Counted from the stretch's first letter, positions 1,805-21,575 are shown. The stretch: 22,520 nucleotides of DNA from Deltaproteobacteria bacterium TL4 (GCA_051382335.1 JBBCAX010000437.1:1-22520); one strand, 5' to 3'. Numbers and translations are program-made. The notes: generated from the sequence alone by a model not told the origin.

Positions 1805-1860
1805 TTGATATTTTTTTTACAATTTGAAATGAGTAACATACATTGAAACCAAGAAAAAAA

Positions 1861-2664
1861 ATGAAATCAAAAATATTGAAAATGGATAATCAATTGACAC
1901 ACTTTGGATTTTGTTTTGAACGAGGAGGAGCCCATACCTCACGCACCATGATGCTGAAGGAACTGGGAGGTGTCTTATCGTATGTAGATCGTCCTGAGGC
2001 GATGAAAAAGGATTATCTGAGTGCGATTGATGAAGAAAATTGCCTGGGCAAACGATCTGGAAAAACCCGTATTTTGACGTATCGGCATCTCGTGGAATTG
2101 TATGCTTTGGATCCTTCCCTACTCCTGTTTCGGGCTCTCCTATATTTCTGGAAACGAGATCCTTCTGGCCAACCGTTATCAGGATTCCTTTGCGCCTATG
2201 CACGAGACTCCATTTTGAGATCCTCAGCCTCCTTCATTTTAAAATTTCCACCCGGTGCAGTTATTACAAGAGAGGCCTTGGAAGAAAGAATTGAAGCTCA
2301 GGAACCGGGGCGGTTCAGCAAGGCGACCTTGAAATCCACAGCTCAAAACATCAACTCCACCTGGACCCAATCCGGACATCTGACAGGTCGTAGACGAAAG
2401 ATCCGTTCCGTGGCAAATCCTACCGACGGGAGTGTTTCCTATGCCTTGTTGCTCGGATATCTGGCAGGATTCAGAGGCGAATCTCTTTTTCAAACCGAAT
2501 ATACCCAACTGCTGGATTGTCCCTTCAACCGCCTCCTTGAATTGACAGAAGATGCCTCTCGTAAAGGTTGGTTGATCTTCAAACGGGTTGGAAATGTCAT
2601 GGAAGTCCTCTTCCCCAACCTTCTTACTCCTCAAGAAAGGGAATGGATTCATGAGCAGGGTTAA
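1861..2664 (+). CDS. brxA: BREX BrxA-like protein
   Basis: First gene of the operon, overlapping brxB. The sequence (GAHTSRTMML, ENCLGKRSGKTR, STWTQSGHL) resembles the protein found in the BrxA position of PglZ-B BREX loci. Start uncertain (1861 or 1882). Confidence 0.65.
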   Translation: MKSKILKMDNQLTHFGFCFERGGAHTSRTMMLKELGGVLSYVDRPEAMKKDYLSAIDEENCLGKRSGKTRILTYRHLVELYALDPSLLLFRALLYFWKRDPSGQPLSGFLCAYARDSILRSSASFILKFPPGAVITREALEERIEAQEPGRFSKATLKSTAQNINSTWTQSGHLTGRRRKIRSVANPTDGSVSYALLLGYLAGFRGESLFQTEYTQLLDCPFNRLLELTEDASRKGWLIFKRVGNVMEVLFPNLLTPQEREWIHEQG

Positions 2665-3205
2665 ACGGTTGATTCAATCCTATGGTAAATACATCTCAAT
2701 CCCCTGGAAACTGGATGCTGCCGCTGCCCAACGGGTGATTTTTTGCGTGTATCCGGAAATGGAGGAACTCCGATTACGAGCCAGGATTGATGAATTTGAA
2801 CTTGTCACAAGACAGGCTGGACATGAATGGCTCCTGTTTGATCTGACCGATACCTTTGCCCAATGGCTCTCTCAGGAAGACTATGTGGAAGAATATTTTC
2901 AGGAACCCCAACTTCTGCAAGATTTACTTCCTGAGACGTATTGTGCTTTTCTGACTAAACGGTTTGATCAAAGCCTTCAAAAAGGTTCCATCAACGAACA
3001 AACGGTTGTGGTGTTGATGGGAGTCGGGACTCTTTTTGGGTTTGCCAAGGTCAAAGATCTCATTGATTTGTTTGCTCCCCGCATCAAAGGTCGTCTTTTG
3101 GTTTTGTTCCCTGGGAGTTATGAAAACAACAACTATCGACTTTTAGATGGATACGATGGATGGAATTACCTGGCCGTTCCAATTACTGCGGATAAAGATT
3201 TTTAG
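2651..3205 (+). CDS. brxB: BREX protein BrxB (DUF1788)
   Basis: About 184 aa, with C-terminal GRLLVLFPGSYENNNYRLLDGYDGWNYLAVPI typical of DUF1788; lies upstream of brxC. ATG 2651 overlaps the end of brxA. Confidence 0.85.
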   Translation: MSRVKRLIQSYGKYISIPWKLDAAAAQRVIFCVYPEMEELRLRARIDEFELVTRQAGHEWLLFDLTDTFAQWLSQEDYVEEYFQEPQLLQDLLPETYCAFLTKRFDQSLQKGSINEQTVVVLMGVGTLFGFAKVKDLIDLFAPRIKGRLLVLFPGSYENNNYRLLDGYDGWNYLAVPITADKDF

Positions 3206-3232
3206 TCCACGAACCACACTAAATACACGAAA
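3204..3232 (+). repeat. A-type left arm (3 x ~9 bp) of GxxExxY cassette 1
   Basis: agtccacgaaccacactaaatacacgaaa; 26/29 match to the reverse complement of 3625-3653. Confidence 0.9.
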
Positions 3233-3240
3233 GAGAATGA

Positions 3241-3621
3241 ATGAGTCAGGAAATTTTATATAAAGAAGAGTGCTATCAAATACAGGGTGCTATTTTTGAA
3301 GTGTACAGGGAAATGGGGTGTGGGTTTCTGGAAAGTGTTTACCAGGAATGTCTTGAGAAGGAATTACTTAAACGTGAAATCCCTTTTCTCGCGCAACAGG
3401 AGTTGAAACTTTTCTACAAAGGGGAGGTTTTGAAACAAACTTATAAACCTGACCTGATTTGCTTTGATAAGATCATTGTAGAATTGAAGGCTCTCAGTCA
3501 AGTCACAGGAGACCATAGAGCCCAAGTACTGAATTATCTGAAAGCAACCCGTTTGAGCCTCGGTTTGCTTGTCAATTTTGGACATTATCCGAAAGCAACG
3601 GTAGAAAGGTTGGTCTTATAA
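3241..3621 (+). CDS. GxxExxY protein 1 (PD-(D/E)XK-like nuclease fold)
   Basis: 126 aa; GFLESVY motif, PDL...IVELKA, and QVLNYLKAT..LGLLVNFG. Confidence 0.92.
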   Translation: MSQEILYKEECYQIQGAIFEVYREMGCGFLESVYQECLEKELLKREIPFLAQQELKLFYKGEVLKQTYKPDLICFDKIIVELKALSQVTGDHRAQVLNYLKATRLSLGLLVNFGHYPKATVERLVL

Positions 3622-3624
3622 TTT

Positions 3625-3653
3625 TTTCGTGTGTTTCGTGTGTTTCGTGGACT
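3625..3653 (-). repeat. A-type right arm of GxxExxY cassette 1
   Basis: tttcgtgtgtttcgtgtgtttcgtggact, starting 4 nt after the stop codon. Confidence 0.9.
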
Positions 3654-3671
3654 GTTTTTGAGAGAATCTGA

Positions 3672-6600
3672 ATGAACAATCGTGATATTTACCTGAAAGA
3701 TCCTACCCTCCGGAAATTGGTCAATGAAGGGGTGGCGAGTGTGAATGACCTGAATGAACATGTCCTGCGCTACGAGTTGGAGACGTTTGTCTGTAGTGGC
3801 CAATATCAAAAGGGAATTTCCCACATCCTGCGTACTTACATGGATAATATTCGGGCTTCCCAACAGCCTGGAGTCTGGGTGAGTGGATTTTATGGTTCCG
3901 GTAAATCTCACCTGGTGAAAATGCTTTCGGCGTTATGGACAGACTATCACTTTGAAGATGGAGCCAAAGCCAGAGGCATTGCCATGCTTCCTCAGGATGT
4001 CCGCGACCTGTTGGTGGAACTGGAGAAGGAAGGCAAACGGCATGGAGGTCTTCATAGTATTTCAGGAACCTTGAAAGCCAATGATGACAGTAATAGTGTT
4101 CGTTCCGCGATTTTGGCGATGGTTTTCAAATCCATCGGACTTCCCGCCAAATATCATCTGGCTTCCTTTGTGATGTGGTTGCAGGAAGAAGGTCTTCTGA
4201 AGGAAGTCCGCCAGATTGTGGAAGGCAAGGGCAAAGCCTGGGAGGAGGAAATTACCCGGCTTCATGTTTCCAAAATCATTCGTGAGGCACTCGTCCAATT
4301 AAAACCCCAGATCTTTTTTGATGAAAGAAGTTGTGCGGAAATCCTCAGGAACCAGTTCCCCTCCGGCAAGGATGTTTCCAGTGATGATATGCTCAAGGCC
4401 ATGCGGTTGGCTTTAACCCGAAATGGGAAACTGCCTCTCACCTTGATGGTGCTGGATGAAGTCCAGCAATACATTGGGGAAGACAGCCAGCGATCCATTG
4501 ATGTTCAGGAAGCGGTGGAAGCCTGCTGCAAGAATCTGGGTAGCAAAATCCTCTTTATCGGAACGGGACAAACGGCTGTTACCGGAACCAGTAACCTTAA
4601 AAAACTGGAAGGGCGTTTCACCATTCGAGTCGAACTTTCAGATACCGATGTGGATTCCGTAATTCGTCAGGTGATTCTGGCTAAAAAACCTGAAGCCAAG
4701 GAGCCCATTGAAACCATAATGCAAACCAATCTGGGCGAAATTTCCCGTCATCTTTCAGGAACAACCCTGGGACACCGGCAAGAGGACATCGCCTGGTTTC
4801 CTCAGGATTATCCGATTTTGCCCGTTCGTCGTCGCTTTTGGGAAAACACCCTGCGGGTGCTTGACAGAACGGGAACGGATAGCCAACTCAGAAATCAACT
4901 CAGCATGATTCATAAGGTGATCCAGACCAACCTGAACGCACCCTTGGGTCAGGTGATTCCTGCGGATTATCTTTATTTTGATTCAGCGGAAAAGCTCCTG
5001 CAGTCTCGCATTTTACCCCGCAAGGTCTATGAAAAAACTATGAGCTGGATCAAAGGTTCTGAAGCAGAGCAACTCATGGCTAGAGCCTGTGGTCTGGTGT
5101 TTCTGATCAATAAGCTGAGTGGCAGTAATACCGAAATCGGCATCCGTTGCACCATCCATTCTTTGGCAGACCTGATGGTTGAAAATCTGGCGAGTGGTTC
5201 CGGTTCTTTGAGAGCCAAACTCCCTGCCCTTCTGGATCAATGCGAACTGCTGATGAAGGTGGGAGAGGAATACCGTATTCAGACAGAGGAGAGTTCTGCC
5301 TGGAATGATGAGTTTCTCAGTCAACGGTCGATTTTGGCGAATGAAACCCATCGCATCGAATCAGAACGGGATGATCGTATTCGTAAAAAGTTTGGGGAGA
5401 TTGTCAAAAATCTATCTCTGACGCAGGGAACCTCCAAGGTCACCCGCACCCTCTTTCCCCATTTTGATGCCCAGTTGCCAACGGATGCGGATAAAAAAAT
5501 CTACGTCTGGGTTCGGGATGGGTGGCATATTGATGAAAATTCAGTCCGGATTGATGCCCGTCAGGCGGGGAATCAATCCCCCACCGTGTTTATCTTCATT
5601 CCCAAGCGCTCGGCGGATGATCTGAGGCATCACCTGATTGATTACAAGGCAGCCATTGCCACCCTCGATAAACGGGGAGTTCCTAATACCCCTGAAGGGA
5701 TTGAAGCACGTTCGGCTATGGAAACTACCCGGCAGACGGCTGAAACCAAAATTCGTGAATTGCTGGAGGAGTCTTTTTCAGGAGCGCGTGTGTTCCAAGG
5801 GGGCGGCAATGAGATTCCGGGAGATCATTTGCAGGAGATGGTGCTGGATGCCGCTAATAACTCGCTTCAGCGACTGTATCCCAATTTCTATTGGGCGGAT
5901 CATTTGGGTTGGGCAAAAGTTTATGAAAAGGCTCAGAAAGGAGCCCCGGATGCCTTGAAAGCGGTGGGCGATGAAGGGGAGCCTGCCAAAAATCCCATTT
6001 GTAAAGCCATCCTCGGGTTTATCTCAGGCGGAAAAAGAGGAACCGACATCCGAAATGGGTTTGAAGGAGAAACTTACGGTTGGTCACGGGATGCTGTCGA
6101 TGGGGCGCTTCAGGTGCTGCTGGTTGCAGGAATCCTCCGTGCTCAGGACGAACGTGGACAAACGGTCGATCCCAAAGAACTGGAGCGTAAATCTATCGGC
6201 AAAACGACCTTCAAGGTAGAATCCACTACCCTTACTACCATTCAGAGGATTGCTATCCGAAAATTGCTCCAGAAGGCAGGTCTGCAACCTCAGCAGGGAG
6301 AAGAGTTGGTCTCTGTCCCAAGATTCCTGCAAAAGATGCTGGATCTTGCTGAACAGGCAGGAGGGGAAGCTCCCCAACCCCTCCGTCCTGATAGTTCGCT
6401 TCTGGAAGAAATTCGCTTGCTTTCCGGAAATGAACAACTCCTGGCGGTGTATAATAATCGGGAACCCCTGGCTCAGTTTTTTGACGCCTGGACCCATCTG
6501 GCAGAACGTATTCAACAACGTTGGACGAACTGGATCATCCTTCAAAAATTGCTGAAGCATGTGAGTCAAGAACAGCCACTAGAAGAATTAGAGTCCACCA

Positions 6601-7214
6601 AACACACGAACGACACGAAAAACAAGATTGACAAGAAACAGCCCTTAGCTTCCCTTATTCGCGTTCATTCGCGTTCATTCGCGGTTCCAGACATGCAAAT
6701 CCTCTTCACGCGAATTCAAACCCTGGAACAACAACGTCAATTATTGGCGGAACCGGATTGGATCATCCCTTTGGTCAATAACCTCTCACAACTTCTGAGG
6801 GAGGAACTGAATCGGTTTCATCAGCAGTATACCCAACTCCATCAACAGGGCATGACCCGACTTCATACGGATGGAAATTGGCAAAAGCTGGAACCTGAAC
6901 AACGCAATCAACTCCTCCAGGAACAAAAACTGACGCTCTCCGATGCTCCTGTGATTCAGGTGTCCAACACCCAGGAAATTCTGAATACCCTGGAAAAAAT
7001 CTCGTTGAGCGCCCTCTCCGACCGCATCGCCGCCATGAATTCCCGCTTTGAGGCGGTTTTAACCGGAGCGGCAGAACTGATGGAACCCAAAGCCCAATTT
7101 ATAAAACTCCCAGGTCGAACCCTCAAAACCAGCGCTGAGATGGATTCCTGGCTCAATGAAGTGAAACAACAACTCCTGACAGCCCTGCAACAGGGACCTG
7201 TCGTGATACGATAA
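3672..7214 (+). CDS. brxC: BREX P-loop ATPase BrxC
   Basis: 1180 aa; RYELETFVC, Walker A GVWVSGFYGSGKSH, Walker B LMVLDEVQQY; operon position. Confidence 0.92.
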   Translation: MNNRDIYLKDPTLRKLVNEGVASVNDLNEHVLRYELETFVCSGQYQKGISHILRTYMDNIRASQQPGVWVSGFYGSGKSHLVKMLSALWTDYHFEDGAKARGIAMLPQDVRDLLVELEKEGKRHGGLHSISGTLKANDDSNSVRSAILAMVFKSIGLPAKYHLASFVMWLQEEGLLKEVRQIVEGKGKAWEEEITRLHVSKIIREALVQLKPQIFFDERSCAEILRNQFPSGKDVSSDDMLKAMRLALTRNGKLPLTLMVLDEVQQYIGEDSQRSIDVQEAVEACCKNLGSKILFIGTGQTAVTGTSNLKKLEGRFTIRVELSDTDVDSVIRQVILAKKPEAKEPIETIMQTNLGEISRHLSGTTLGHRQEDIAWFPQDYPILPVRRRFWENTLRVLDRTGTDSQLRNQLSMIHKVIQTNLNAPLGQVIPADYLYFDSAEKLLQSRILPRKVYEKTMSWIKGSEAEQLMARACGLVFLINKLSGSNTEIGIRCTIHSLADLMVENLASGSGSLRAKLPALLDQCELLMKVGEEYRIQTEESSAWNDEFLSQRSILANETHRIESERDDRIRKKFGEIVKNLSLTQGTSKVTRTLFPHFDAQLPTDADKKIYVWVRDGWHIDENSVRIDARQAGNQSPTVFIFIPKRSADDLRHHLIDYKAAIATLDKRGVPNTPEGIEARSAMETTRQTAETKIRELLEESFSGARVFQGGGNEIPGDHLQEMVLDAANNSLQRLYPNFYWADHLGWAKVYEKAQKGAPDALKAVGDEGEPAKNPICKAILGFISGGKRGTDIRNGFEGETYGWSRDAVDGALQVLLVAGILRAQDERGQTVDPKELERKSIGKTTFKVESTTLTTIQRIAIRKLLQKAGLQPQQGEELVSVPRFLQKMLDLAEQAGGEAPQPLRPDSSLLEEIRLLSGNEQLLAVYNNREPLAQFFDAWTHLAERIQQRWTNWIILQKLLKHVSQEQPLEELESTKHTNDTKNKIDKKQPLASLIRVHSRSFAVPDMQILFTRIQTLEQQRQLLAEPDWIIPLVNNLSQLLREELNRFHQQYTQLHQQGMTRLHTDGNWQKLEPEQRNQLLQEQKLTLSDAPVIQVSNTQEILNTLEKISLSALSDRIAAMNSRFEAVLTGAAELMEPKAQFIKLPGRTLKTSAEMDSWLNEVKQQLLTALQQGPVVIR
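6592..6686 (+). repeat. In-frame hybrid repeat insertion in brxC: A-left arm (6592-6620) + spacer + B-right arm (6657-6686)
   Basis: agtccaccaaacacacgaacgacacgaaa ... attcgcgttcattcgcgttcattcgcggtt, translated as STKHTNDTK...IRVHSRSFAV. Confidence 0.88.
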
Positions 7215-7221
7215 AGGTTAT

Positions 7222-8541
7222 ATGCTTACATCTATCACCTTAAGTAACTTTAAGAGCTATCGCCATGCTCAACTTCCTTTGGCAGCATTGACCTTTTTGA
7301 TTGGTCCCAATGCCTCAGGAAAAAGTAATGCGTTGGAGGCTATTCGGCTTCTGAACTGGTTGGCAAAAGGAATGCGTCTGGATGATATTGCTAAAGATAT
7401 TCAGAGTGGTGACTCCGTTGTAAGGGGGCTCGTAAAAGATCTTTTTCTCGGAGACGATCAAAAATTCCAGTTAGGTTGCCATGTTAACGATGCTCCAGAG
7501 GAGTGGGGCGATTTTATGGTCAACATCGGCCAAATCAATGAGCAATTAGTGATCGTTGGAGAAAGTGTCACCCAGAAGGATGAAAAAATACCTCTCTATC
7601 AGGTAGATGCTGAACCTAACCTTCATACGGATGAAATAAGTGTGGCTTACAATAATTTCAGCAAAGGAAAAAACAAGCCTCATATTCCCTGTTCTAATCG
7701 CCAGGCAATCTTTTACCAATTGGGAACGGCAGGGCGTTTTGATAGTGCTCATCAAAAATCTCAAACGCTCATTCCGGATGTAACCAAAATAATAAGGGAG
7801 ACCCTTCAAAATATTGTAGTTCTTGATCCAAGTCCTGCACTGATGCGAGGTTATTCCTATGCCAAGGATAACATCATCAAGGAAAATGGAAAAAACCTTT
7901 CTGCGGTACTCTATAGCCTTTGTGAGCTTGGCGAGGATAACAGACAGGCACTCCTTGCTTTTATTCGTTCACTGCCGGAACAGGATATCACTGATATCAA
8001 ATTTATCAAAAATGAAAGAATGGATGTTATGGTGCGTCTGGAAGAAACTTTTGGTCATCAGAAAAATCTTATAGATGCTCCTCTTTTGTCGGATGGTACC
8101 TTACGTGTTTTAGCTATTGGAGCAACATTGCTCACTGCTCCGCAGGGTGCTCTGGTGATTATTGAGGAAATCGACAGTGGAGTGCATCCCTCACGTGCGG
8201 GTGCATTGGTCCAACAGATCCAGCAAATAGCTACCCAACGTGAATTACGTGTATTGCTAACCTCTCATAATCCCGCTTTACTGGATTCTTTGCCAGACAA
8301 TGCCTTGGGGGATGTTCTTTGTTGTTTCCGTGATCTTGAAGAAGGAGACAGTAAACTGATTCGCTTGGGAGATCTGGATCGCTACTCAGAACTGGTAGCT
8401 CAAGGACCTTTGGGGCAATTGATGACACGCCGGGTTCTTGAGCGATTTCTGAAGGATAACACCTCCTCAGAGCAACGTCAAAAAGAGGCTATGAAATGGC
8501 TACAACAGCTTAAACAAAGCAATGGAGGAGAACAGGGATGA
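7222..8541 (+). CDS. ABC/AAA-family ATPase (AAA_21-like)
   Basis: LSNFKSY, Walker A GPNASGKSN, signature LSDGT, Walker B/D-loop IIEEIDSGVHP, H-loop TSHNP. Confidence 0.88.
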   Translation: MLTSITLSNFKSYRHAQLPLAALTFLIGPNASGKSNALEAIRLLNWLAKGMRLDDIAKDIQSGDSVVRGLVKDLFLGDDQKFQLGCHVNDAPEEWGDFMVNIGQINEQLVIVGESVTQKDEKIPLYQVDAEPNLHTDEISVAYNNFSKGKNKPHIPCSNRQAIFYQLGTAGRFDSAHQKSQTLIPDVTKIIRETLQNIVVLDPSPALMRGYSYAKDNIIKENGKNLSAVLYSLCELGEDNRQALLAFIRSLPEQDITDIKFIKNERMDVMVRLEETFGHQKNLIDAPLLSDGTLRVLAIGATLLTAPQGALVIIEEIDSGVHPSRAGALVQQIQQIATQRELRVLLTSHNPALLDSLPDNALGDVLCCFRDLEEGDSKLIRLGDLDRYSELVAQGPLGQLMTRRVLERFLKDNTSSEQRQKEAMKWLQQLKQSNGGEQG

Positions 8542-9002
8542 ACTCGATCTGTCTGTTGGACACCACGGTCTTTGTAGAGATTCTCAATGTACCCCAGAAG
8601 GCGAATCAGCATGCTCGTATCATTGAATCGCTGGAACAGAAAATAAAAGATAATGAATCTTTGTTTTTGCCTATGGCGACTATCCTCGAAACTGGGAATC
8701 ATATTGGTCAAAACGGAAACGGCAACCAGCGTCGTGACTGTGCAAAGCGTTTTGTTGAGCAGGTCACTCAAGCTATGGAGGGGAAATCCCCCTTTAAGCC
8801 CATTAGCTTTTTAACTCATGAAGCTATGAAAAAATGGTTGGCTGAATTTCCTGATCATGCGAGTCGTGGCAGTGGGTTGGGTGATCTCTCGATTATTCAT
8901 GACTGGAAGCGTCTTTGTGATCAAAATCCTCGTCGTCGTGTCTATATCTGGACACTGGATGAACATCTTGCCAGCTATGATAAACCTACAGGAGAACCCT
9001 GA
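8538..9002 (+). CDS. PIN-domain-like protein
   Basis: 154 aa with PIN-type acidic motifs LLDTTV, ILET, GLGDLSI and WTLDEHL; ATGA overlap with the upstream ATPase. Confidence 0.7.
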   Translation: MNSICLLDTTVFVEILNVPQKANQHARIIESLEQKIKDNESLFLPMATILETGNHIGQNGNGNQRRDCAKRFVEQVTQAMEGKSPFKPISFLTHEAMKKWLAEFPDHASRGSGLGDLSIIHDWKRLCDQNPRRRVYIWTLDEHLASYDKPTGEP

Positions 9003-12000: not shown

Positions 12001-12898
12001 CACGAAAGAAATAAATGAAAACCTGATTGGCGTTCATTCGCGTTCATTTGCGGTTAATAACACATTGGAACTTTCTGAAGAATCTCGTTTTTGGGTCAAA
12101 CAATGCGAGGAACTAATATCATTTGTGGATGAAGATGGCATTGTGTGTATCCCTCCAGTTCGGGGAGAGGCCGCAGCGGCGGATCGGTTGATCAATCTCC
12201 TCGCTAAAGCTCATGCTCAACATTCTTCTGGATCAGAGGGAGCCTTTCTTTCCTGGACGGAAACCCTCTTAAAAAACTCCGATCACGCTGGAAAATCCCT
12301 GGAAACCTGGTTGCGTGACAAGTTCTTCCTCCAGCACTGCAAACGGTTCCAGCACCGTCCGTTTATCTGGCAAATCTGGGATGGTCTGAGGGATGGATTT
12401 TCCGCGCTGGTGAATTATCACAAACTGGATCACAAACTGCTGGAAACCCTGATTTACACCTATCTGGGCGACTGGATCACCCGTCAGAACGATGACCTCA
12501 AAAGCGGTGTGGATGGCGCTCAGGAAAAGCTGGCGGCTGCGGAACAACTCAAGAAAAAACTGGAAGCGATTCTGGAGGGTGAAGCACCCCTGGATATTTT
12601 TGTCCGCTGGAAACCCTTGTCCCAACAACCCCTTGGCTGGAATCCTGACCTCAACGATGGCGTGCGCCTCAACATCCGCCCCTTCATGACCGCCGGAGTC
12701 CTGCGCTTTAACAAAAAACCCCAACTCAACATTACCTGGGACAAAGACCGTGGCAAAGATGTCGAATCCGCTCCCTGGTTTCATCGCTTCCAGGGCGACC
12801 GCATCAATGACCATCATCTATCTCTGTCTGAAAAATTAAAAGCAAAGGAGTCCACGGAACACACAGAAAACACGGAAAACAGGATAAAAAATGGATAA
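9002..12898 (+). CDS. pglX: BREX adenine DNA methyltransferase PglX (BrxX)
   Basis: 1298 aa; LGWVYQFW, PAVTQLFTEPY, motif I VLDPCCGSGHFL, motif IV ITNVPY, and C-terminal DLNDGVRLNIRPF. Confidence 0.92.
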   Translation: MQPLEKSLRNKLEKTIKEAREISEAAAKAALEQLGVGEANPFPHLAEKERELRRQLRIHGRQLGDVRHAQTEVQELDRLIEEVAYEHWHRILFARFLAENKLLMYLEEKPQINANGRKLNENLISVPSRSFAVEDAVAVTLEECEDLAVEEGLKNGWEMASRLASRMLPQVFRIDSVVFALQFPPEHQQKLERLGSELPREVFTASDSLGWVYQFWQAKKKDEVNASEVKIGARELPAVTQLFTEPYMVSFLLDNALGAWWASRRLSLEVIKQVSAESTESTEIEKELRKRSAIPGVPLDYLRFVPSSVSSVSSVSSVDLKWTPAAGSFDHWPKHLSEFKVLDPCCGSGHFLVAAFLMLVPMRMELENLSARDAVDRVLSENLHGLELDQRCVELAAFALALTAWKYPNLPSPSGRGAGGEGPIGYRKLPELHLACSGLSVSVAKEEWKKFGLNQHNLRIALGDMYDVFQEAPVLGSLLNPQKIKLPDQVNWKSLSLSLEQALSQEKTAEVHEVGVVAQGLVKTTQLLQQKYHWVITNVPYLNRGKQNDILKDFCEKHYPEAKTDLATVFLQRCLELTSSPVPLSINREGGLGGTVSVVLPQNWLFLTSYKKFREKLLCNDLWHLIARLGPGAFETISGEVVKAILITLSRGNKESTKHTQHTKNKELDLFDLETSSLNPLSINGEGTLSTSSLNPFSMNGEGTSSKFSPSPVMERGAGGEVIAGLDVSEPRTTSEKASLLQTAAIKQVEQAKQLENPDARVAFDEIQGDLLENFSSSYQGIKTGDDSAKRRFFWEQENKNRWLLFLSTVDNTVDFGGFESVIDWSKKGSDMARLQGVGGWGQYGILVSQMRHLPVSLFNGSKFDSNVSALPVSNPAHIPAIWCFCSSPEYNEAVRQIDQSLKVTNATLVKVPFDLEHWSKVAEEKYPHGLPKPYSDDPTQWIFHGHPGGSVVWNETTKKLEVAPTLRTDDTVLQVAVARLLGYRWPAELELESTKHTKYTKEINENLIGVHSRSFAVNNTLELSEESRFWVKQCEELISFVDEDGIVCIPPVRGEAAAADRLINLLAKAHAQHSSGSEGAFLSWTETLLKNSDHAGKSLETWLRDKFFLQHCKRFQHRPFIWQIWDGLRDGFSALVNYHKLDHKLLETLIYTYLGDWITRQNDDLKSGVDGAQEKLAAAEQLKKKLEAILEGEAPLDIFVRWKPLSQQPLGWNPDLNDGVRLNIRPFMTAGVLRFNKKPQLNITWDKDRGKDVESAPWFHRFQGDRINDHHLSLSEKLKAKESTEHTENTENRIKNG
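9327..9400. repeat. Empty B-type hairpin in pglX (B-left 9327-9356, 14-nt loop, B-right 9371-9400)
   Basis: aaccgcaaataaacgcaaatggacgcaaat / attagcgttccttcgcgttcatttgcggtt; arms 25/30 complementary; the left arm is 29/30 identical to 18344-18373. Confidence 0.9.
9823..9958. repeat. C-type (A-related) inverted arms in pglX (9823-9850 and 9922-9958)
   Basis: gtccgcagaatccacagaaagcacggaa ... ttccgtgtcttctgtgtcttctgtgtcttccgtggac; translated SAESTESTE and SVSSVSSVSSVD. Confidence 0.82.
10229..10266 (-). repeat. GC-rich REP-like palindrome (D family) in frame in pglX
   Basis: ctcccctcgccctctgggagaggggctgggggtgaggg with stem cccctcgccc/gggagagggg; translated LPSPSGRGAGGEG. Confidence 0.85.
10733..10773 (+). 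repeat. GC-rich REP-like palindrome (D family) in frame in pglX
   Basis: acctcatcccccgtccccctctccatcaatagagagggggg; translated TSSPVPLSINREGG. Confidence 0.82.
10965..10993 (+). repeat. Solo A-left arm in pglX
   Basis: agtccacgaaacacacccaacacacgaaa; translated STKHTQHTK. Confidence 0.88.
11023..11166. repeat. Cluster of three D-family palindromes in pglX: two direct 44-bp copies (11023-11066, 11071-11114) and one inverted copy (11125-11166)
   Basis: aacctcatccctaaatccc(c/t)tctccat(c/g)aatggagaagggactt twice, then ctccccctcgccagttatggagaggggggcggggggtgaggt. Confidence 0.88.
11979..12055 (+). repeat. In-frame hybrid repeat insertion in pglX: A-left (11979-12007) + B-right (12026-12055)
   Basis: agtccacgaaacacacaaaatacacgaaa ... 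attggcgttcattcgcgttcatttgcggtt; translated STKHTKYTK...IGVHSRSFAV. Confidence 0.88.
12850..12878 (+). repeat. C-type left arm of GxxExxY cassette 2 (within the last codons of pglX)
   Basis: gtccacggaacacacagaaaacacggaaa; 25/29 match to the reverse complement of 13293-13321. Confidence 0.88.
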
Positions 12899-13289
12899 GC
12901 TTCCTTCAGAGGATAACAAACTGCTCTTTGAAAAAGAAACGTATGCCCTCCGTGGTGCTGTGTTTGAAGTCTATAGAGAGATGGGGTGTGGCTTTTTGGA
13001 AGCCGTCTATCAGGAATGTCTGGTGAAGGAGTTGACTCGACTGGGTATTCCTTTTGTAGCTCAACAGGAGTTAACGCTCACTTATAAAGGAGAGGCCTTG
13101 AAGCAAACCTACAAACCCGATTTTATTTGTTATAATGCGATTGTAGTGGAACTCAAAGCCTTGTCTGCAACAACAGGTGAGCATAAAGCTCAGGTTCTCA
13201 ATTATCTAAAAGCCACTGGAATGAAGGTTGGACTTTTAGTGAATTTTGGAAGTTATCCCAAAGCTACGGTAGAAAGGTTGGTTTTATGA
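12891..13289 (+). CDS. GxxExxY protein 2
   Basis: 132 aa; GFLEAVY, PDFIC..IVVELKA; close paralogue of 3241-3621 (shares FEVYREMGCGFLE, AQVLNYLKAT, YPKATVERLVL). Confidence 0.92.
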   Translation: MDKLPSEDNKLLFEKETYALRGAVFEVYREMGCGFLEAVYQECLVKELTRLGIPFVAQQELTLTYKGEALKQTYKPDFICYNAIVVELKALSATTGEHKAQVLNYLKATGMKVGLLVNFGSYPKATVERLVL

Positions 13290-13292
13290 TTA

Positions 13293-13321
13293 TTTCAGTG
13301 TTTTCAGTGTTTTCAGTGGAC
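13293..13321 (-). repeat. C-type right arm of GxxExxY cassette 2
   Basis: tttcagtgttttcagtgttttcagtggac, starting 4 nt after the stop codon. Confidence 0.9.
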
Positions 13322-13338
13322 AATAAAAGAGGTATTTC

Positions 13339-14421
13339 ATGAATCAGAATCATTTAACCCGTATTGTTTTGAATGGGTTTAAATCGATCAAGACTTGTGA
13401 TCTGGAACTGAAAGATCTCAATGTTCTGATTGGTCCAAATGGAGCTGGGAAGTCTAATTTCATCAGCTTTTTCAAAATGATCCAGCAGATGTTGGGAGGT
13501 AATCTTCAGCTCCATGTGGGGCGGGAAGGAGGACCTGATGCACTTCTGCACTTTGGTAGAAAAAAGACAGAAAACATCCAGGCTAAACTCTACTTTGGAA
13601 ATAATGGCTATGCCTGTGTTCTTGAACCAACCCAGGATCACCGATTGATGTTTTCAAATGAGTTTTTTGGGTGGGATGTGAGCGGTTTTAAATCGATTGG
13701 TTCCGGACATTTTGAAACCAAAGCTTTTGAAGGAACTAAAACCGGTATTGATCAATATGTCCTGACCGCCATGCAAAACTGGAAAGTCTATCATTTTCAT
13801 GACACCAGCGAAACAGCCAGGGTAAAACAAAGAGATGATATCAATGATAATATGTATTTACGTCCAGATGCCCGAAATCTGGCGGCTTTTCTGAACTTGC
13901 TGAAGATAAAATACAACAATCATTATCAGCGTATTATCAAAACCATCCGACTGGTTGCCCCTTTTTTTGAAGATTTTTGTTTAAGACCCAATTCCGATAA
14001 CCAAGACCGGATTGAATTGGAGTGGATGGAAAAAGGAGAGGATAAGCCATTTAAAGCACACCTTCTTTCGGATGGAACACTGCGTTTTATTTGTATCGCG
14101 ACGGTTTTAATGCAACCGGATCATCTCCAACCTCAAACGATCCTGATTGATGAACCAGAATTGGGACTTCATCCTTTTGCTATTCATTTACTGGCAGGCA
14201 TGCTTCGATCTGCCTCGAAAACAACGCAAATTATTATTTCAACTCAATCCTGTGAGTTATTAAGTGAATTTGAAGTGGAGAATGTAATTGTTGCGGATCG
14301 CACAGAGGGAGGGACTTATCTGCATCGTCTTGATAAAGATTCTCTGGTCAGATGGTTGGAAGACTATTCACTAGGAGAACTCTGGCAAAAAAATATTTTG
14401 GGAGGGAGTCCATCAAAATGA
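13339..14421 (+). CDS. ABC/AAA-family ATPase (AAA_21 / SMC-like)
   Basis: NGFKSI, Walker A GPNGAGKSN, YHFHDTS, LSDGTLRF, IDEPELGLHP, ISTQS, YSLGELWQKN. Confidence 0.88.
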   Translation: MNQNHLTRIVLNGFKSIKTCDLELKDLNVLIGPNGAGKSNFISFFKMIQQMLGGNLQLHVGREGGPDALLHFGRKKTENIQAKLYFGNNGYACVLEPTQDHRLMFSNEFFGWDVSGFKSIGSGHFETKAFEGTKTGIDQYVLTAMQNWKVYHFHDTSETARVKQRDDINDNMYLRPDARNLAAFLNLLKIKYNNHYQRIIKTIRLVAPFFEDFCLRPNSDNQDRIELEWMEKGEDKPFKAHLLSDGTLRFICIATVLMQPDHLQPQTILIDEPELGLHPFAIHLLAGMLRSASKTTQIIISTQSCELLSEFEVENVIVADRTEGGTYLHRLDKDSLVRWLEDYSLGELWQKNILGGSPSK

Positions 14422-15923
14422 AGCAACAGGAAATCATAGAACTTATCGCTCAGGGGGAAAATTCCAGTGTGGAATTCAAACGGGATGATCTTCGACCGGA
14501 GCAATTGGCTAAAGAGGTTGTGGCGATGGCGAATTTGCAAGGGGGCGTCATTCTTCTTGGAGTGGAGGATGACGGGTCCGTGAGTGGGATAAGCCGCAAA
14601 AATCTGGAGGAATGGGTCATGGATACGGTCTTTGGACGCTACATTCATCCAGCCATCATTCCACACTATCAGGAACTCCAATGGAGGGAGGGGCAACGAA
14701 TCGCCCTTATTTCCATTTCTACCGGTACCTCCAAGCCTTACGTGGTCAGACATAATGATCGTGAGGATATTTATGTGAGGATGGGTTCCGTTACACGACT
14801 TGCGACGCGTGAACAGGCACTTCGGTTGTTTGGTTCCGGGGGATTGTTACACACGGAAACCCTGCCTGTTTCTGGTTCCTCTTTCAAACATTTGGACCCA
14901 GTCCGTATTGAGAATTATCTGCGAGATATTTTACAGGAGCAGGATATGCCGGAATCTGAAGCACAATGGGTGGATCGACTCGTGGGACTGGGGTTTTTGA
15001 CCACCGATGCCATGGGGCAAACGGTCTGCACGATAGCAGGGATGGCTTTGTTTGGGATTCGTCCCAGAAGATGGTTGCCTCAAGCGGGTTTGAGAGTCGT
15101 GGTTTTTGATGTGGCTGACAAGCAATATCAGGCGCTCCTGGATGTTGTTCTGGATGGACCGATGGTGGGACGGTGGCATCTTGAAAAAGAAAAACTCAAA
15201 ACATTGGTCGATGATGGACTGGTTGAGAAGTTTATCCGGGCTATCGAGCCCTTTGTTACGGTGGAAGATAACCAGATTGATCAGAATTTTAGAAAGGAAA
15301 AGCGCTGGCTTTATCCGATGGATGCCATTCGTGAAACCGTCTTGAATGCCTTGGCGCATCGGGATTGGACCCGGTCGGTGGATATTGAAATTACCCGTTA
15401 TAGTGATCGGCTGGAAATCATCAGTCCGGGAGCCTTACCGAATTCGATGACTTTGGAAAAAATGAAGGCTGGACGGAGAACTCCCCGTAATCCCATCCTT
15501 ATGGACGTCCTGAGGGATTATGGTTATGTTGAGGCTCGGGGGATGGGAGTTCGTACCAAGGTCATTCCATTGACGCGGCAGTTCACAGGCTCGGAACCTC
15601 TGTTTGAAGCGACCGAGGATTACTTGAAGACGGTCATTGCGGTGGGAACGCCTTCCCCTTCTGTCCCTAAAAAAGAAAAAACGTCCCTGAAAAACGTCCC
15701 TGAAACCCAGGTTTCTTCAAAAAACGTCCCTAAAAATGAGTTTCAGAGACATTTACTGTCCCTGATCAGGGACAATCCCCACCTCACTTATGAGGAATTA
15801 TCCGCTCAGACGCAGTGCAACCGCAAAAAGGTTCAACGTCACCTGAACGCACTCAAGGATTCCGGATTTTTACGCAGGGAAGGCTCGCCCAAGGGAGGGC
15901 ATTGGGAGGTGTTGGAGTTATGA
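14418..15923 (+). CDS. Schlafen/AlbA_2 domain + RecG-C/HATPase_c_4-like domain + C-terminal HTH protein
   Basis: N-terminal GENSSVEFK...AMANLQGGVILLGVEDDG; ETVLNALAHRDW, EIISPGAL, PRNPIL, EARGMG; HTH TYEELSAQ...RREGSPKGGHWEV. ATG 14418 chosen for its ATGA overlap. Confidence 0.85.
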   Translation: MKQQEIIELIAQGENSSVEFKRDDLRPEQLAKEVVAMANLQGGVILLGVEDDGSVSGISRKNLEEWVMDTVFGRYIHPAIIPHYQELQWREGQRIALISISTGTSKPYVVRHNDREDIYVRMGSVTRLATREQALRLFGSGGLLHTETLPVSGSSFKHLDPVRIENYLRDILQEQDMPESEAQWVDRLVGLGFLTTDAMGQTVCTIAGMALFGIRPRRWLPQAGLRVVVFDVADKQYQALLDVVLDGPMVGRWHLEKEKLKTLVDDGLVEKFIRAIEPFVTVEDNQIDQNFRKEKRWLYPMDAIRETVLNALAHRDWTRSVDIEITRYSDRLEIISPGALPNSMTLEKMKAGRRTPRNPILMDVLRDYGYVEARGMGVRTKVIPLTRQFTGSEPLFEATEDYLKTVIAVGTPSPSVPKKEKTSLKNVPETQVSSKNVPKNEFQRHLLSLIRDNPHLTYEELSAQTQCNRKKVQRHLNALKDSGFLRREGSPKGGHWEVLEL

Positions 15924-18355
15924 AAGTGATGGAACACCTCAAGAAAGCGATACGAGATGCTGCGATTTATAACCCTGAAGTCCAGGTAGCTCCTGCCTGT
16001 ATTCTCTGGACAGATCATGACCGACAATGGGAACCCGTGATTCCAAGGCTTCAAATGGAGATGCCGGAATTACTGGTCTTGGGAAACTATAATCCTGAAA
16101 AGCGGACAGGTCCCGCAATCTGGTTACGGTGTGTGCTAGAGGGAAAATTTGTCCACGAAACACACGAACAACACGAAAAAAATAAAAAAATTGAACAACC
16201 GCAAATGGACACAGATGGACGCAAATCAAGTGAAACCAATATTCGCATTGATTCGCATTCATTCGAGGTTCCCATTCTTTACTTACCCGGTGTGAGTCGG
16301 CAGGCTTTGAGAGCGGTTGAAAATTGTCCGGAGTTTCTGAAGCCCTTGGCGGAGTTGCAATACCGTGGAGTGATTTGGTCACAGGTCAATGCCAAAGACT
16401 GGACGGTGATGGCTTTTCTGAAATCCGATCAGGGTGGGTTGGGACTGGATGTCTCCCAGGATAATGATACCCGAAATTCCATGTTGTTGGCTTTAACCGC
16501 CTTGTTGGATGAAAAGGTGACTCATCTCAAAGGAAAACATCTGGATCGGGACTATTTCAATGAGTTGTTGACTGGAGGCGATCCTGTGAAGGATTTGCTC
16601 CAATGGATGGATCAGGAAGAGGCTTTTCAGAAAGGACGGAGTTCCAATGAATGGAAAGCTTTTGTGGAGTTATGCAAATCCAAATTTGCCTTTAATCCTG
16701 TCCAGGAGGGGATTTTGACAGGTGTCTCCAGACTGGCGACGCATGAAGGAGCCTGGAAAGCCGTGTGGGAACGGTTTTGTGAAGCACCTGCCCGGTATTC
16801 CAACATTCCCTCTAAAATGCGTAAGGCATCCATGCCTCCACAGGATCTGTTTTCTGATGAAAGCACCCACGGAGGTTGGCCTCAGTGGAATGACATTCAG
16901 GAAAAAAATCTTCGCCAGGACTTACTGGAGTTGAATAAGATGCCACCTCATGAAGCCCGAAAAAAAATATTGGAGCTGGAAAAAAAGCACTCTCGCAGAC
17001 GGACTTTGGTATGGGCAGAACTGGGAGAATCTCCACTGGTTTTGACTTTAGCACATTTGGCTGTATTGGCAGAAACGACGCAATATAGTCTGACTGCCGG
17101 GACTCTTGAAGACCTGGTTTCGAGTTATTCCACTCAGGGCTGGAAATCCGATGATGCGGTACTGAGTGCTTTGGCTGAAATAGAGCCTGCGGACTTTGAA
17201 ATCATTGTAGCGGTATTGCGTGCGGTTTATCTCCCTTGGGCTGAAGAATCTGCAAGGTATCTGCAGAAAATCTGGAACCCTGAAGGGCCATGCAAAAGAT
17301 CCCATCCTCCTGGAACCCCTGAATGTATTTTGTTTGTGGATGGATTACGGTTTGATTGCGCCAAGCGCCTGTCCGCTATCCTTGAAAAAAAGGGGATCAC
17401 GATTCAGGAAAAAATCTGTTGGGCGGCTCTGCCCAGTGTAACAGGGACCGGTAAACCCGCAGTGGTTCCTCTAGGGTTATCCTCCAGCGTTGCGGAAGAA
17501 GCAGAATCTCAGGATTTTCAGGTGATGACCTCGTATCAGTTTGACAAAGCCATGAACGATTCGGGTTGGTTGATCCTCCGTTCCAAAGACCCCATTCCTG
17601 CCCCTGTTCAGTCCACGGGTTCTGGCTATTTAAACAATTCCATTGTTAATAAACTATGGGTTGAGTTTGGTAATATTGACCATGAAGGGCATGATCGTGG
17701 ATGGAAACTGGCTAAACACCTGGAGGGGTTGCTGGAGGAGATCAGTGACCGGATCCAAATGCTCCTGTCTTCAGGTTGGAAAACAGTTCGGGTGGTTACC
17801 GATCATGGTTGGTTACTCTTGCCGGGTGGACTTCCCAAAGGGGAGTTATCCAATGCCTTGGTAGAAAGTAAATGGGGACGTTGTGCATCCTTGAAAAAGG
17901 GCGTCCATAGTGAAGAAAAACTCTATCCCTGGTATTGGAATCCGATCCAGCATTTTGCTTTGGCAGAGGGGATAAGCTGCTTCCGTAAGGGAGAGGAATA
18001 CACTCATGGGGGATTGAGTCTGCAAGAATGTGTAACCCTTGAATTGGTGGTTTCTGAAGAAAAACGGCAGCAATCCATTTCTCTGGAATTTACCGATGTT
18101 GTATGGAAAGGAATGCGTTGCACCGTAGCCCTTACCGAGAATTTTGAGGGATTATCCCTGGATATTCGTAAGCAACCTGGAAATCCGGAGTCCAGTGTGG
18201 TTGTGGGAGTTAAACCCATAAAGGAAAATGGAACCGCCTCGGTGGTGGTTGAAAATGAAGACTTGCAGGGGCAAGAGGTGACTTTGGTTCTCATGGATGC
18301 AAAGGGAAGTTTGGTAGCACAGATTGCCACAGTAGTAGGAGAAAACCGCAAATGA
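15920..18355 (+). CDS. pglZ: BREX phosphatase PglZ (type B)
   Basis: PACILWTD, RTGPAIWLRC, and alkaline-phosphatase-superfamily motifs FVDGLRFD, ALPSVTGTGKPAV, IDHEGH, VVTDHGW, YTHGGLSLQE. ATG 15920 has an ATGA overlap and ggag RBS. Confidence 0.92.
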   Translation: MKVMEHLKKAIRDAAIYNPEVQVAPACILWTDHDRQWEPVIPRLQMEMPELLVLGNYNPEKRTGPAIWLRCVLEGKFVHETHEQHEKNKKIEQPQMDTDGRKSSETNIRIDSHSFEVPILYLPGVSRQALRAVENCPEFLKPLAELQYRGVIWSQVNAKDWTVMAFLKSDQGGLGLDVSQDNDTRNSMLLALTALLDEKVTHLKGKHLDRDYFNELLTGGDPVKDLLQWMDQEEAFQKGRSSNEWKAFVELCKSKFAFNPVQEGILTGVSRLATHEGAWKAVWERFCEAPARYSNIPSKMRKASMPPQDLFSDESTHGGWPQWNDIQEKNLRQDLLELNKMPPHEARKKILELEKKHSRRRTLVWAELGESPLVLTLAHLAVLAETTQYSLTAGTLEDLVSSYSTQGWKSDDAVLSALAEIEPADFEIIVAVLRAVYLPWAEESARYLQKIWNPEGPCKRSHPPGTPECILFVDGLRFDCAKRLSAILEKKGITIQEKICWAALPSVTGTGKPAVVPLGLSSSVAEEAESQDFQVMTSYQFDKAMNDSGWLILRSKDPIPAPVQSTGSGYLNNSIVNKLWVEFGNIDHEGHDRGWKLAKHLEGLLEEISDRIQMLLSSGWKTVRVVTDHGWLLLPGGLPKGELSNALVESKWGRCASLKKGVHSEEKLYPWYWNPIQHFALAEGISCFRKGEEYTHGGLSLQECVTLELVVSEEKRQQSISLEFTDVVWKGMRCTVALTENFEGLSLDIRKQPGNPESSVVVGVKPIKENGTASVVVENEDLQGQEVTLVLMDAKGSLVAQIATVVGENRK
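16151..16270 (+). repeat. In-frame compound insertion in pglZ: A-left (16151-16178) + B-left (16197-16226) + 14-nt loop + B-right (16241-16270)
   Basis: gtccacgaaacacacgaacaacacgaaa; aaccgcaaatggacacagatggacgcaaat; attcgcattgattcgcattcattcgaggtt. Confidence 0.87.
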
Positions 18356-18373
18356 ACGCAAATGGACGCAAAT
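18344..18373 (+). repeat. B-type left arm (3 x 10 bp) of GxxExxY cassette 3
   Basis: aaccgcaaatgaacgcaaatggacgcaaat; 26/30 match to the reverse complement of 18762-18791; contains the pglZ stop and the GxxExxY start (ATGA 18352-18355). Confidence 0.9.
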
Positions 18374-18753
18374 ATGTTGAAAGTGATTTGGTTTATCGTG
18401 TTGCCGGTTGTGCCATGGCGGTGTTGAATGAGTTGGGTCATGGATTAAGAGAGAAAACCTATGAACGTGCATTATGCGTTGAATTCAGACATCAGGGTGT
18501 TTCCTATAAACAACAGCAGGTTTACCCGGTCTACTACCGAGATGAACATGTGGATGACTACATTCCTGACCTGGAGGTTGAAAGTCGGTTGATTATTGAG
18601 ATTAAAACGGTTGAGAAGATTATTGATGAACATATCGGTCAGGTTCTGAATTATTTACGGATCACGGGACATGAGGCAGGTGTCATCATGAACTTTAAAC
18701 ATGCCAAACTTGAATGGAAAAAAGTTGTTTTACAGGAAAGCCGGAATCCATGA
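18352..18753 (+). CDS. GxxExxY protein 3 (divergent clade)
   Basis: 133 aa; GLREKTY motif, IPDLEV..IIEIK, QVLNYLRITG...IMNF. Confidence 0.92.
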   Translation: MNANGRKYVESDLVYRVAGCAMAVLNELGHGLREKTYERALCVEFRHQGVSYKQQQVYPVYYRDEHVDDYIPDLEVESRLIIEIKTVEKIIDEHIGQVLNYLRITGHEAGVIMNFKHAKLEWKKVVLQESRNP

Positions 18754-18761
18754 TTTTTTTA

Positions 18762-18791
18762 ATTTGCGTTTATTTGCGTCTATTTGCGGTT
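18762..18791 (-). repeat. B-type right arm of GxxExxY cassette 3
   Basis: atttgcgtttatttgcgtctatttgcggtt. Confidence 0.9.
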
Positions 18792-18804
18792 AAAAGGAGT
18801 TCTG

Positions 18805-21343: not shown

Positions 21344-21494
21344 ATTTTTTGGTGACGGCAACCGATTCAAGCCATCACACGGTGTCATTCCGTGCTTGAC
21401 ACGGAATCCATCGGCGCACTCCTGGATCCCCGTTTTCACGGGGATGACATCGTGGCGGACCACAGGATTTCATCACCAAATTATTTACAGCAGG
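21334..21494. mobile_element. MITE (161 bp) with 22-bp imperfect TIRs and 8-bp target duplication
   Basis: Ends cttgctgtaaattttttggtga / tcaccaaattatttacagcagg (19/22 complementary); gatttttt at 21326-21333 and 21495-21502. Confidence 0.8.
21383..21449. repeat. REP/RPE-like double-hairpin palindrome inside the MITE
   Basis: tgtcattccgtg-cttga-cacggaatcca ... tggatccccg-ttttca-cggggatgaca; two hairpins closed by tgtcat/atgaca. Confidence 0.8.
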
Positions 21495-21575
21495 GATTTT
21501 TTTGATGAACTGGATCAACTGCGATTGTTATAGCAGATCACCTTCTTTATATTTATGAACAAGGAGAGCTAAGAG

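Follow-up and report, generated by a model that had tools for sequence, protein, structure and literature searches.

GxxExxY genes lie between inverted arms in a BREX operon

The stretch analyzed here (the window) comprises 22,520 nt of Deltaproteobacteria bacterium TL4 (GCA_051382335.1 JBBCAX010000437.1:1-22520; genome label G000). At 1843–20853 on the plus strand it carries a bacteriophage exclusion (BREX-1) operon with a type B PglZ (brxA, brxB, brxC, pglX, pglZ, and brxL) and nested PDC-M07, AAA, and AlbA_2 genes, as identified by profile matches (Pfam, NCBIfam) and PADLOC. Three small genes of the GxxExxY family, G1, G2, and G3, sit in this operon, each enclosed by a pair of inverted arms made of tandem units; we call the arm–gene–arm arrangement a cassette.

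At the brxB–brxC junction, the left arm of type A (9-bp unit cacgaaaNN; 3204–3232, plus strand; repeat scan and alignment) starts within the brxB stop codon and is followed by G1 (3241–3621, plus strand; 126 aa; TIGR04256/PF13366 profiles and junction comparison) and by the type-A right arm (3625–3653, minus strand; repeat scan), after which comes the brxC start region. The left arm of the second cassette, of type A2 (unit cacNgaaaa; 12849–12878, plus strand; repeat scan), lies inside the last pglX codons; G2 (12891–13289, plus strand; 132 aa; profile match) is 71% identical to G1 in a protein alignment, and the type-A2 right arm (13293–13321, minus strand; repeat scan) precedes a ribosome-binding-like AGAGG and the next gene. 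At the pglZ–brxL junction, the left arm of type B (10-bp unit acgcaaatga; 18344–18373, plus strand; repeat scan) overlaps the pglZ stop and the start of G3 (18352–18753, plus strand; 133 aa; profile match), which is 32% identical to G1 over 104 aa, and the type-B right arm (18762–18791, minus strand; repeat scan) is followed by AAAAGGAG and the brxL start. The unit periods of the three pairs are 9, 9, and 10, and their arms are 90% (3204–3232/3625–3653; 29 nt), 80% (12850–12889/13282–13321), and 87% (18344–18373/18762–18791) complementary. A reading of the window from its bases alone (the sequence-only reading) had described all three pairs and held that no other complete gene was so enclosed. 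Both points were borne out: with equal flank windows, the inverted-repeat scores of the GxxExxY genes were 19–21.5, compared to 6–8.5 for the other 12 genes of the window.

Twelve further arms had been placed inside brxC, pglX, and pglZ, and all of them were located, in frame, so that all 18 arms (6 cassette arms and 12 intragenic ones) are present. A hybrid in-frame insert in brxC (6592–6686; homolog alignment), consisting of a type-A left arm (6592–6620) and a type-B right arm (6657–6686), is missing from six of seven aligned homologs, and in the seventh (L157) a right arm, of that locus's own type, sits at the identical base. In pglX, a gene-less mini-element (9327–9400; repeat scan and PglX alignment) with a type-B left arm (9327–9356), a 14-nt spacer, and a type-B right arm (9371–9400) stands in place of the native PDPDDP loop. 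A type-A2 left arm (9823–9851) and a four-unit right arm (9922–9958) flank native pglX codons (9823–9958; PglX alignment), and a solo type-A left arm occupies another loop (10965–10993, plus strand; repeat scan and PglX alignment). A hybrid mini-element (11979–12055; repeat family D7 and PglX alignment), with a type-A left arm (11979–12007) and a type-B right arm (12026–12055), has a spacer related to that of 9327–9400. The in-frame insert in pglZ (16150–16270; homolog alignment) combines a type-A left arm (16150–16178) with a type-B mini-element (16197–16226 and a decayed arm at 16241–16270). Several intragenic "pairs" are hybrids, with left and right arms of different types, or surround native pglX sequence; the earlier view that the intragenic copies are non-autonomous derivatives is too narrow, as only part of the intragenic arms are gene-less mini-elements and the others are solo or hybrid arms. 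A PglZ loop (17590–17655) has extra residues, including AGTCCACGG (17610–17618), where Desulfobulbus alkaliphilus carries a right arm, and this stretch is possibly a decayed nineteenth arm.

Inverted arms are a family-wide property of GxxExxY loci

GxxExxY loci were taken from related genomes, one viral contig, and metagenomes, the last being skewed to one clade because they are the 80 matches closest to G1 of 583. Of 111 genes gathered, 10 at contig edges were dropped and 101 were scored, with a score of at least 14 defining an inverted flank pair. In all, 81/101 loci had such a pair, whereas it was seen in 3/153 windows that had been shifted and in 11% of 502 pairings of mismatched flanks; in the same-orientation flank control the rate reached 30%, a high value that comes from the many loci with several arms facing both ways. 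The concern that most GxxExxY genes might lack arms was thus not confirmed. Among 22 further rows, which include one duplicate and three cassettes already known from BREX loci, 15 scored, including those of Bacteroides finegoldii, Sphingomonas parapaucimobilis, Bernardetia, D. alkaliphilus, and Rhodopirellula.

The arm design was constant in 76 extracted pairs, with an outer CC followed by three RCNNAR cores separated by variable linkers at a period of 8, 9, or 10. The outer unit is the best-kept part, mismatches fall mostly in the linkers, and the GxxExxY reading frame runs through the left arm in 53/76. When the six cassette arms were folded singly on both strands, the energy was 0 kcal/mol in 11 of 12 cases and −1.7 in one, and no GTAG-tagged repetitive extragenic palindrome (REP) was seen in the arms, whose consensus, CC(RCNNAR-n)x3, has no self-fold. 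Because single arms are not hairpins, their structure is not REP-like, and in this respect the earlier description of the system as REPIN-like does not hold. Apart from a tRNA, an Rfam scan of the window and 20 loci gave nothing but two hairpin matches below threshold. Arm types cluster on the protein tree, with 39 changes compared to 62 after shuffling, on a quick tree of 128 columns and 101 rows with type labels set by hand; judged from this tree, GxxExxY arm type goes with the enzyme variant.

GxxExxY proteins are predicted nucleases

The three proteins scored far above the cut-offs of TIGR04256 (127–143 bits vs. 35) and PF13366 (120–144 vs. 22). Pfam and NCBIfam gave only PDDEXK_3/GxxExxY, GIY-YIG (cd10448) and Y1 HUH domains being absent from G1–G3, and PADLOC profiles (2023 library) assigned them to 0 families. 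PF13366, given as of unknown function in the accessible text of PMC3424549, is very large: 7980 of 8000 scored candidates were homologs, and one relative was found among viral contigs. Residues E41, D71, and E81, which lay outside the patterns used for sequence retrieval, occur in 101/101 proteins, and K83 occurs in 98/101. We read these as the active-site layout E..D..ExK..QxxxY that we take to be typical of Cas4 and RecB-like nucleases. The predicted structure (mean confidence, pLDDT, 94.9) matched 4ic1 best (Z 8.3, root-mean-square deviation 3.7 over 99 residues); SSO0001 is presumably a Cas4, and 4r5q, also among the matches, is titled as Cas4. The modeled fold resembles a Cas4-like PD-(D/E)XK nuclease, Z 8.3 being middling and no proof of function, and DNA cutting by GxxExxY proteins is predicted. 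A search of PDB sequences with the family profile gave no match below E 0.6, and an ESM Atlas search returned GxxExxY clusters only.

Cassettes occupy many unrelated sites, filled and empty

The 171 proteins neighboring the cassettes fall into 136 clusters, and no second gene travels with the cassette. The sequence-only reading had placed the cassettes at junctions between defense genes, which holds for the BREX operon of the window and for restriction-modification operons, but elsewhere they occupy housekeeping sites such as fabD–fabG, radA, and ade. When close cassettes in unrelated neighborhoods were compared, similarity began at the left arm and stopped at, or a few bases past, the right arm (in one pair, the shared stretch also takes in the ribosome-binding site of the next gene); the existence of one conserved insertion site per enzyme lineage was not borne out by these cassettes. 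This comparison supports the view that arm–GxxExxY–arm behaves as a unit, as had been proposed. The same proposal called the unit autonomous, a term that requires host repair, because a hydrolytic PD-(D/E)XK enzyme cannot transpose by itself.

Cassettes fit tightly into their junctions: by crude stop-to-stop calls of neighboring open reading frames, the downstream start lies at most 30 nt from the right arm in 45/57 and the upstream stop lies −12 to +5 from the left arm in 24/65, and neighbors share the cassette's orientation in 66/88 and 63/83 (about three quarters). All three window cassettes follow the orientation of the operon. The gene is patchily distributed, occurring in 19/61 genomes of one set and 6/41 of another, and 7/101 genes contain internal stops.

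Cassette positions might have been invariant across homologous operons; instead, both filled and empty junctions were found. In a BREX set of 79 homologous loci and the window, GxxExxY occupies 2/68 brxB–brxC and 2/63 pglZ–brxL junctions (window and D. alkaliphilus), and in one locus (L116) a left arm stands alone at the very base used by a BREX-junction cassette. The empty BREX sites come from distant genera (about 70% protein identity), because a PglZ query did not find the BREX operon in any of the phylum's 87 other genomes. The fabD–fabG junction is empty in S. paeninsulae and filled in S. parapaucimobilis. The whole cycle is visible at a single site in the genus labeled g11, at which a cassette persists across several species. 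Besides five cassettes, some of them decayed, this site has gene-less pairs of a different type, a right arm standing alone, a remnant of the 3ʹ part, and one stretch that is masked.

Satellite arms crowd around cassettes and match their type

The three of 80 BREX loci that contain GxxExxY carry 14, 10, and 11 arms, compared to the other 77, of which 69 have no arms and none has more than three. All 12 satellites of the window best match a window cassette, and all six of D. alkaliphilus match one of its two cassettes, with one tie in each locus; a 24.8-kb B. finegoldii record has the same pattern of local cognate satellites. Five arm sites are common to the window and D. alkaliphilus, often to the exact base. 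The BrxC of D. alkaliphilus is 88–92% identical to that of empty operons and 71% identical to that of the window; the two operons are not sisters. At shared sites, the arm type may differ between the loci, following the resident cassette.

In 121 PglX homologs, the same eight loops also host RAYT-type (REP-associated tyrosine transposase), DUF559-type, and 7-bp repeats, and one repeat family often occupies several loops of one protein, sometimes with a whole enzyme domain in frame, the peptides being assigned to repeat families from adjoining Pfam domains and the author's reading. That inserts sit where they do is explained by selection for tolerant loops, which leaves their supply unexplained.

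The pglX gene of the window also contains in-frame GC-rich hairpin repeats (CCCCTC..GAGGGG; 10229–10268, 10726–10773, and 11017–11173). PglX homologs share these repeats, which in some cases surround an entire DUF559 domain, in a loop that holds RAYT domains elsewhere. In-frame fusions at one PglX loop involve RAYT in P0124, P0128, P0129, P0207, and P0228 and DUF559 in P0123, P0126, P0145, P0164, P0175, and P0201; proteins fused with either domain have cognate repeats in up to five other loops. These sequences suggest a DUF559–repeat element of the same guild, of which no description was found in a literature search. Near PglX residues 257–326, P0127, P0144, and P0235 have peptides like 7-bp tandem arms (VSGQLS/TDHCTLTTDN); such arms are presumably linked to four-helix-bundle genes.

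Arms across the genome and a MITE that carries them

The genome of the window has four GxxExxY genes, three in the window and a fourth (C375) with its own arm type. A relaxed scan found 174 arms and 32 cognate inverted pairs, where a shuffled sequence gave 9 and 0, respectively. Twenty-eight of the 32 pairs are gene-less with spacers of at most 100 nt, many of them borne by a miniature inverted-repeat transposable element (MITE); the other four, with spacers of 388–427 nt, are the four GxxExxY cassettes, and no other gene is enclosed. The window holds 17 of the 120 non-MITE arms within 22.5 kb, a roughly fifty-fold excess over the 15 per Mb found elsewhere. Among 61 related genomes, those with GxxExxY had a median of 8 arms and those without it a median of 1, in a count whose pattern catches under half of known arms and whose genomes are not independent.

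The near-identical, high-copy arm pairs of this genome (24 near-full copies; e.g., C4:9060–9170) lie inside the MITE, which has 14-bp ends. In genome G009 (L244–L256), the same MITE is flanked by 8-bp AT-rich duplications; its spacer is related, its arms belong to a different type, and the element was probably mobilized by a DDE transposase. An interpretation of the high-copy pairs as REPINs driven by GxxExxY was dropped, as the pairs lie within this separate element. The MITE copies show arm type changing inside one conserved frame.

Gene-less arm pairs also form tandem arrays, resembling arrays of bacterial interspersed mosaic elements, next to a cassette or between genes (L163:8498–9440; C114:41529–41708 in the genome of the window). 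In B. finegoldii (L279:1400–1585), an arm pair surrounds another hairpin repeat; the insert follows a stop codon and precedes the native terminator.

Other features of the locus

The BREX island is bracketed by two directly oriented copies of the insertion sequence (IS) IS1634 (127–1664 and 21575–22354), the left one short at its 3ʹ end and the right one frameshifted and broken off. Nested in the operon (7222–9002 and 13339–15923) are a PDC-M07A/B pair, a lone AAA ATPase, and an AlbA_2/HATPase_c_4/HTH gene, and homologous operons hold varied cargo at these positions. A pair of GTCAT-tagged hairpins lies at 21383–21452, with a similar pair in L194 at the g11 cassette site; we assume that these resemble SRM/CGTC repeats.

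A nuclease–repeat model and its alternatives

As the most economical account, and with a probability of roughly 55%, we propose that the cassette is a selfish nuclease–repeat element: GxxExxY likely cuts at arms matching its type, and in repairing the cut the host would copy arms and cassettes to nearby positions or overwrite those already there. The gene would be expressed by read-through from the host operon. Its product would bind the repeated RCNNAR cores as duplex, either in genomic double-stranded DNA or in the stem of paired left and right arms in single-stranded DNA, the recognized cores presumably sitting about one helical turn apart. Cleavage would fall near the conserved outer CC end, and templated host repair would copy a cassette, a gene-less pair, or a single arm into new or occupied sites, mostly near ones. 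Purifying selection would then leave inserts only at junctions and surface loops. A broader form of this model is offered tentatively, as the less probable of the two: that GxxExxY proteins, as a large set of nucleases with sequence specificity, write and overwrite their own three-unit recognition arms nearby via templated repair, retype older arms where they stand, and spread without a transposase, as one of a guild of small replicators, each pairing an enzyme with a repeat (RAYT, Ssn, DUF559, and 7-bp tandem types), that would compete for the same operon junctions and protein loops and thereby remodel defense enzymes, PglX among them.

Several points weigh against the proposal. The element is known from sequence, with no activity, intermediate, or ongoing movement seen, and to our knowledge the PD-(D/E)XK fold hydrolyses DNA and has no known strand-transfer step. 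A search for sequencing runs matching positions 9000–18900 of the window listed none. A scoring pair is missing in 20/101 loci and in five of eight named plasmid-collection records. No clear target-site duplication was found at the BREX junctions; a GGAG-like motif stands on both sides at pglZ–brxL, where the empty sites are too distant for comparison. The sequence-only reading had worried that arms might abound without the gene, and arm-rich genomes exist in which the gene was not found, namely, G009 (31 arms; 95% complete), G011 (19; 93%), G023 (10; 89%), and G082 (57; 88%), with at least six arms in 6/42 gene-negative genomes. This abundance is partly due to the MITE, and as MITE-borne copies are passengers, their number says nothing about spread by GxxExxY. 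Finally, the window and D. alkaliphilus share derived bases beside their arms, and for this reason independent insertion at the shared sites is not claimed. Sequence comparison leaves these sites open to either of two readings: they may reflect repeated targeting, or they may be old insertions that short tracts of recombination have carried along, with retyping afterward. Under either reading, some process must convert arms to the type found locally.

Alternatively, the arms may be moved by another enzyme, a RAYT/IS200-type HUH or DDE transposase, GxxExxY being an arm-recognizing helper or maintenance nuclease, like TnpB for its element, that does not initiate the copying. PD-(D/E)XK enzymes are generally known not to rejoin DNA, arms do travel as passengers of a MITE (14-bp ends, 8-bp flank duplications), and the arm-rich genomes without a detected gene and the use of the same PglX loops by RAYT- and DUF559-type repeats also agree with this explanation. 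We nevertheless consider it doubtful, since no second gene travels with the cassette, satellites track the local GxxExxY arm type rather than the genome-wide type, and no other gene in the genome of the window lies between cognate arms. The possibility that the arms act in RNA is less probable still. Here, pairing of the left and right arms would loop the cassette out of the polycistronic message, and processing would follow, rendering insertion harmless, with the protein acting on the stem or regulated by it; the processed loops of rRNA intervening sequences provide a model. The tight fit at co-transcribed junctions and the greater likeness of arms within a cognate pair than of same-type arms from other loci (24.8 vs. 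19.8 of 30, a difference that pair selection biases upward) are what one would expect. Against it, G.U pairs show no bias on the transcribed strand (87 vs. 80; p 0.64), mismatches lie in unit linkers, as they do in repeats bound by proteins, solo and hybrid arms have been retained, Rfam has no matching family, and new cognate arms in neighboring genes are left unexplained.

A domesticated host function, in which the nuclease restricts or promotes recombination of incoming arm-bearing DNA and thereby diversifies defense loci such as BREX, appears similarly improbable, although it does not exclude the nuclease–repeat model and is compatible with it. Patchy presence, frequent decay and loss, the lack of a PADLOC model, and cassettes equally at home in housekeeping operons argue against it. 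The many cassettes in restriction-modification and BREX operons, the persistence at one site across several g11 species, and the modulation of transformation by SsnA, as described in the accessible text of PMC11893778, argue for it. Least probable of all are inversion (phase variation) sites or slippage products unlinked to the protein, an explanation prompted by the inverted geometry and by tandem units able to slip. It is already largely refuted, as window cassettes all share the operon orientation and most neighbors elsewhere are co-oriented, no recombinase travels along, arm type tracks the protein, and shuffles yield no pairs.

Comparison with known systems

Repeats around GxxExxY genes, and the mechanism proposed for them, were not described in the literature searched, which had subscription papers and supplements outside its scope; the name GxxExxY itself occurs in three papers, in one of them in passing. 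Under the nuclease–repeat model, the arms give PF13366 a named, testable substrate and many natural enzyme–repeat pairs of differing specificity, as with Ssn. The model would add a further enzyme fold and a non-palindromic repeat to the elements that combine a small nuclease with a cognate repeat, would account for odd in-frame peptides in annotated proteins (STKHTKYTK, PQMNAD, and SVSSVSSV), and would help to explain how REP-like repeats spread when the partner enzyme is without strand-transfer chemistry.

Free-standing homing endonucleases are hydrolytic nucleases that spread through host repair. GxxExxY cassettes resemble them in having filled and empty alleles at orthologous positions with few shared flanking bases, but GxxExxY has no single conserved target, and its candidate recognition site is borne by the element and copied without the gene. 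Like IS elements and MITEs, the cassettes have terminal inverted repeats around one open reading frame and internally deleted derivatives; unlike them, they have no DDE, HUH, or serine transposase and no clear target-site duplication at the BREX junctions, and their arms are imperfect, periodic, and often solo or hybrid. The fold and active-site layout are like those of Cas4 and RecB-like nucleases (4ic1 and 4r5q), from which GxxExxY differs in the small size of G1 (126 aa) and in being without CRISPR context.

The closest parallels are Ssn/SRM and RAYT/REP, compared here as far as the accessible text of the cited sources describes them. SsnA cleaves at the repeats that flank its own gene (Chenal et al. 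2025, PMC11893778). As in Ssn/SRM, a small single-domain nuclease gene has its own repeat on both sides (42% of Ssn homologs vs. about 80% of GxxExxY), the repeats are specific to enzyme variants, gene-less copies occur elsewhere, and no strand-transfer domain is present (PMC11893778). In contrast, Ssn is a GIY-YIG enzyme and GxxExxY a PD-(D/E)XK one, SRM forms a hairpin alone while GxxExxY arms, which are tandem trimers and not palindromic, fold only when paired, and NTS is rarely intragenic while GxxExxY arms often lie in frame inside genes (PMC11893778). With RAYT/REP systems, REPtrons, and REPINs, the cassettes share inverted cognate repeats at the enzyme gene, gene-less inverted pairs, repeat-specific enzyme variants, and in-frame intragenic copies; RAYTs, however, are HUH tyrosine transposases with GTAG-tagged palindromic REPs, and they are described as non-jumping and vertically inherited, unlike GxxExxY cassettes, which occur at many unrelated sites (PMC3733652; bioRxiv 2021.07.10.451892). 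The gene–arm association is real and family-wide and works like Ssn/SRM and RAYT/REP, yet the GxxExxY element belongs to neither, because its enzyme fold and repeat structure differ from those that define them. GxxExxY with its arms is probably the mark of a selfish mobile element of a kind not yet described.

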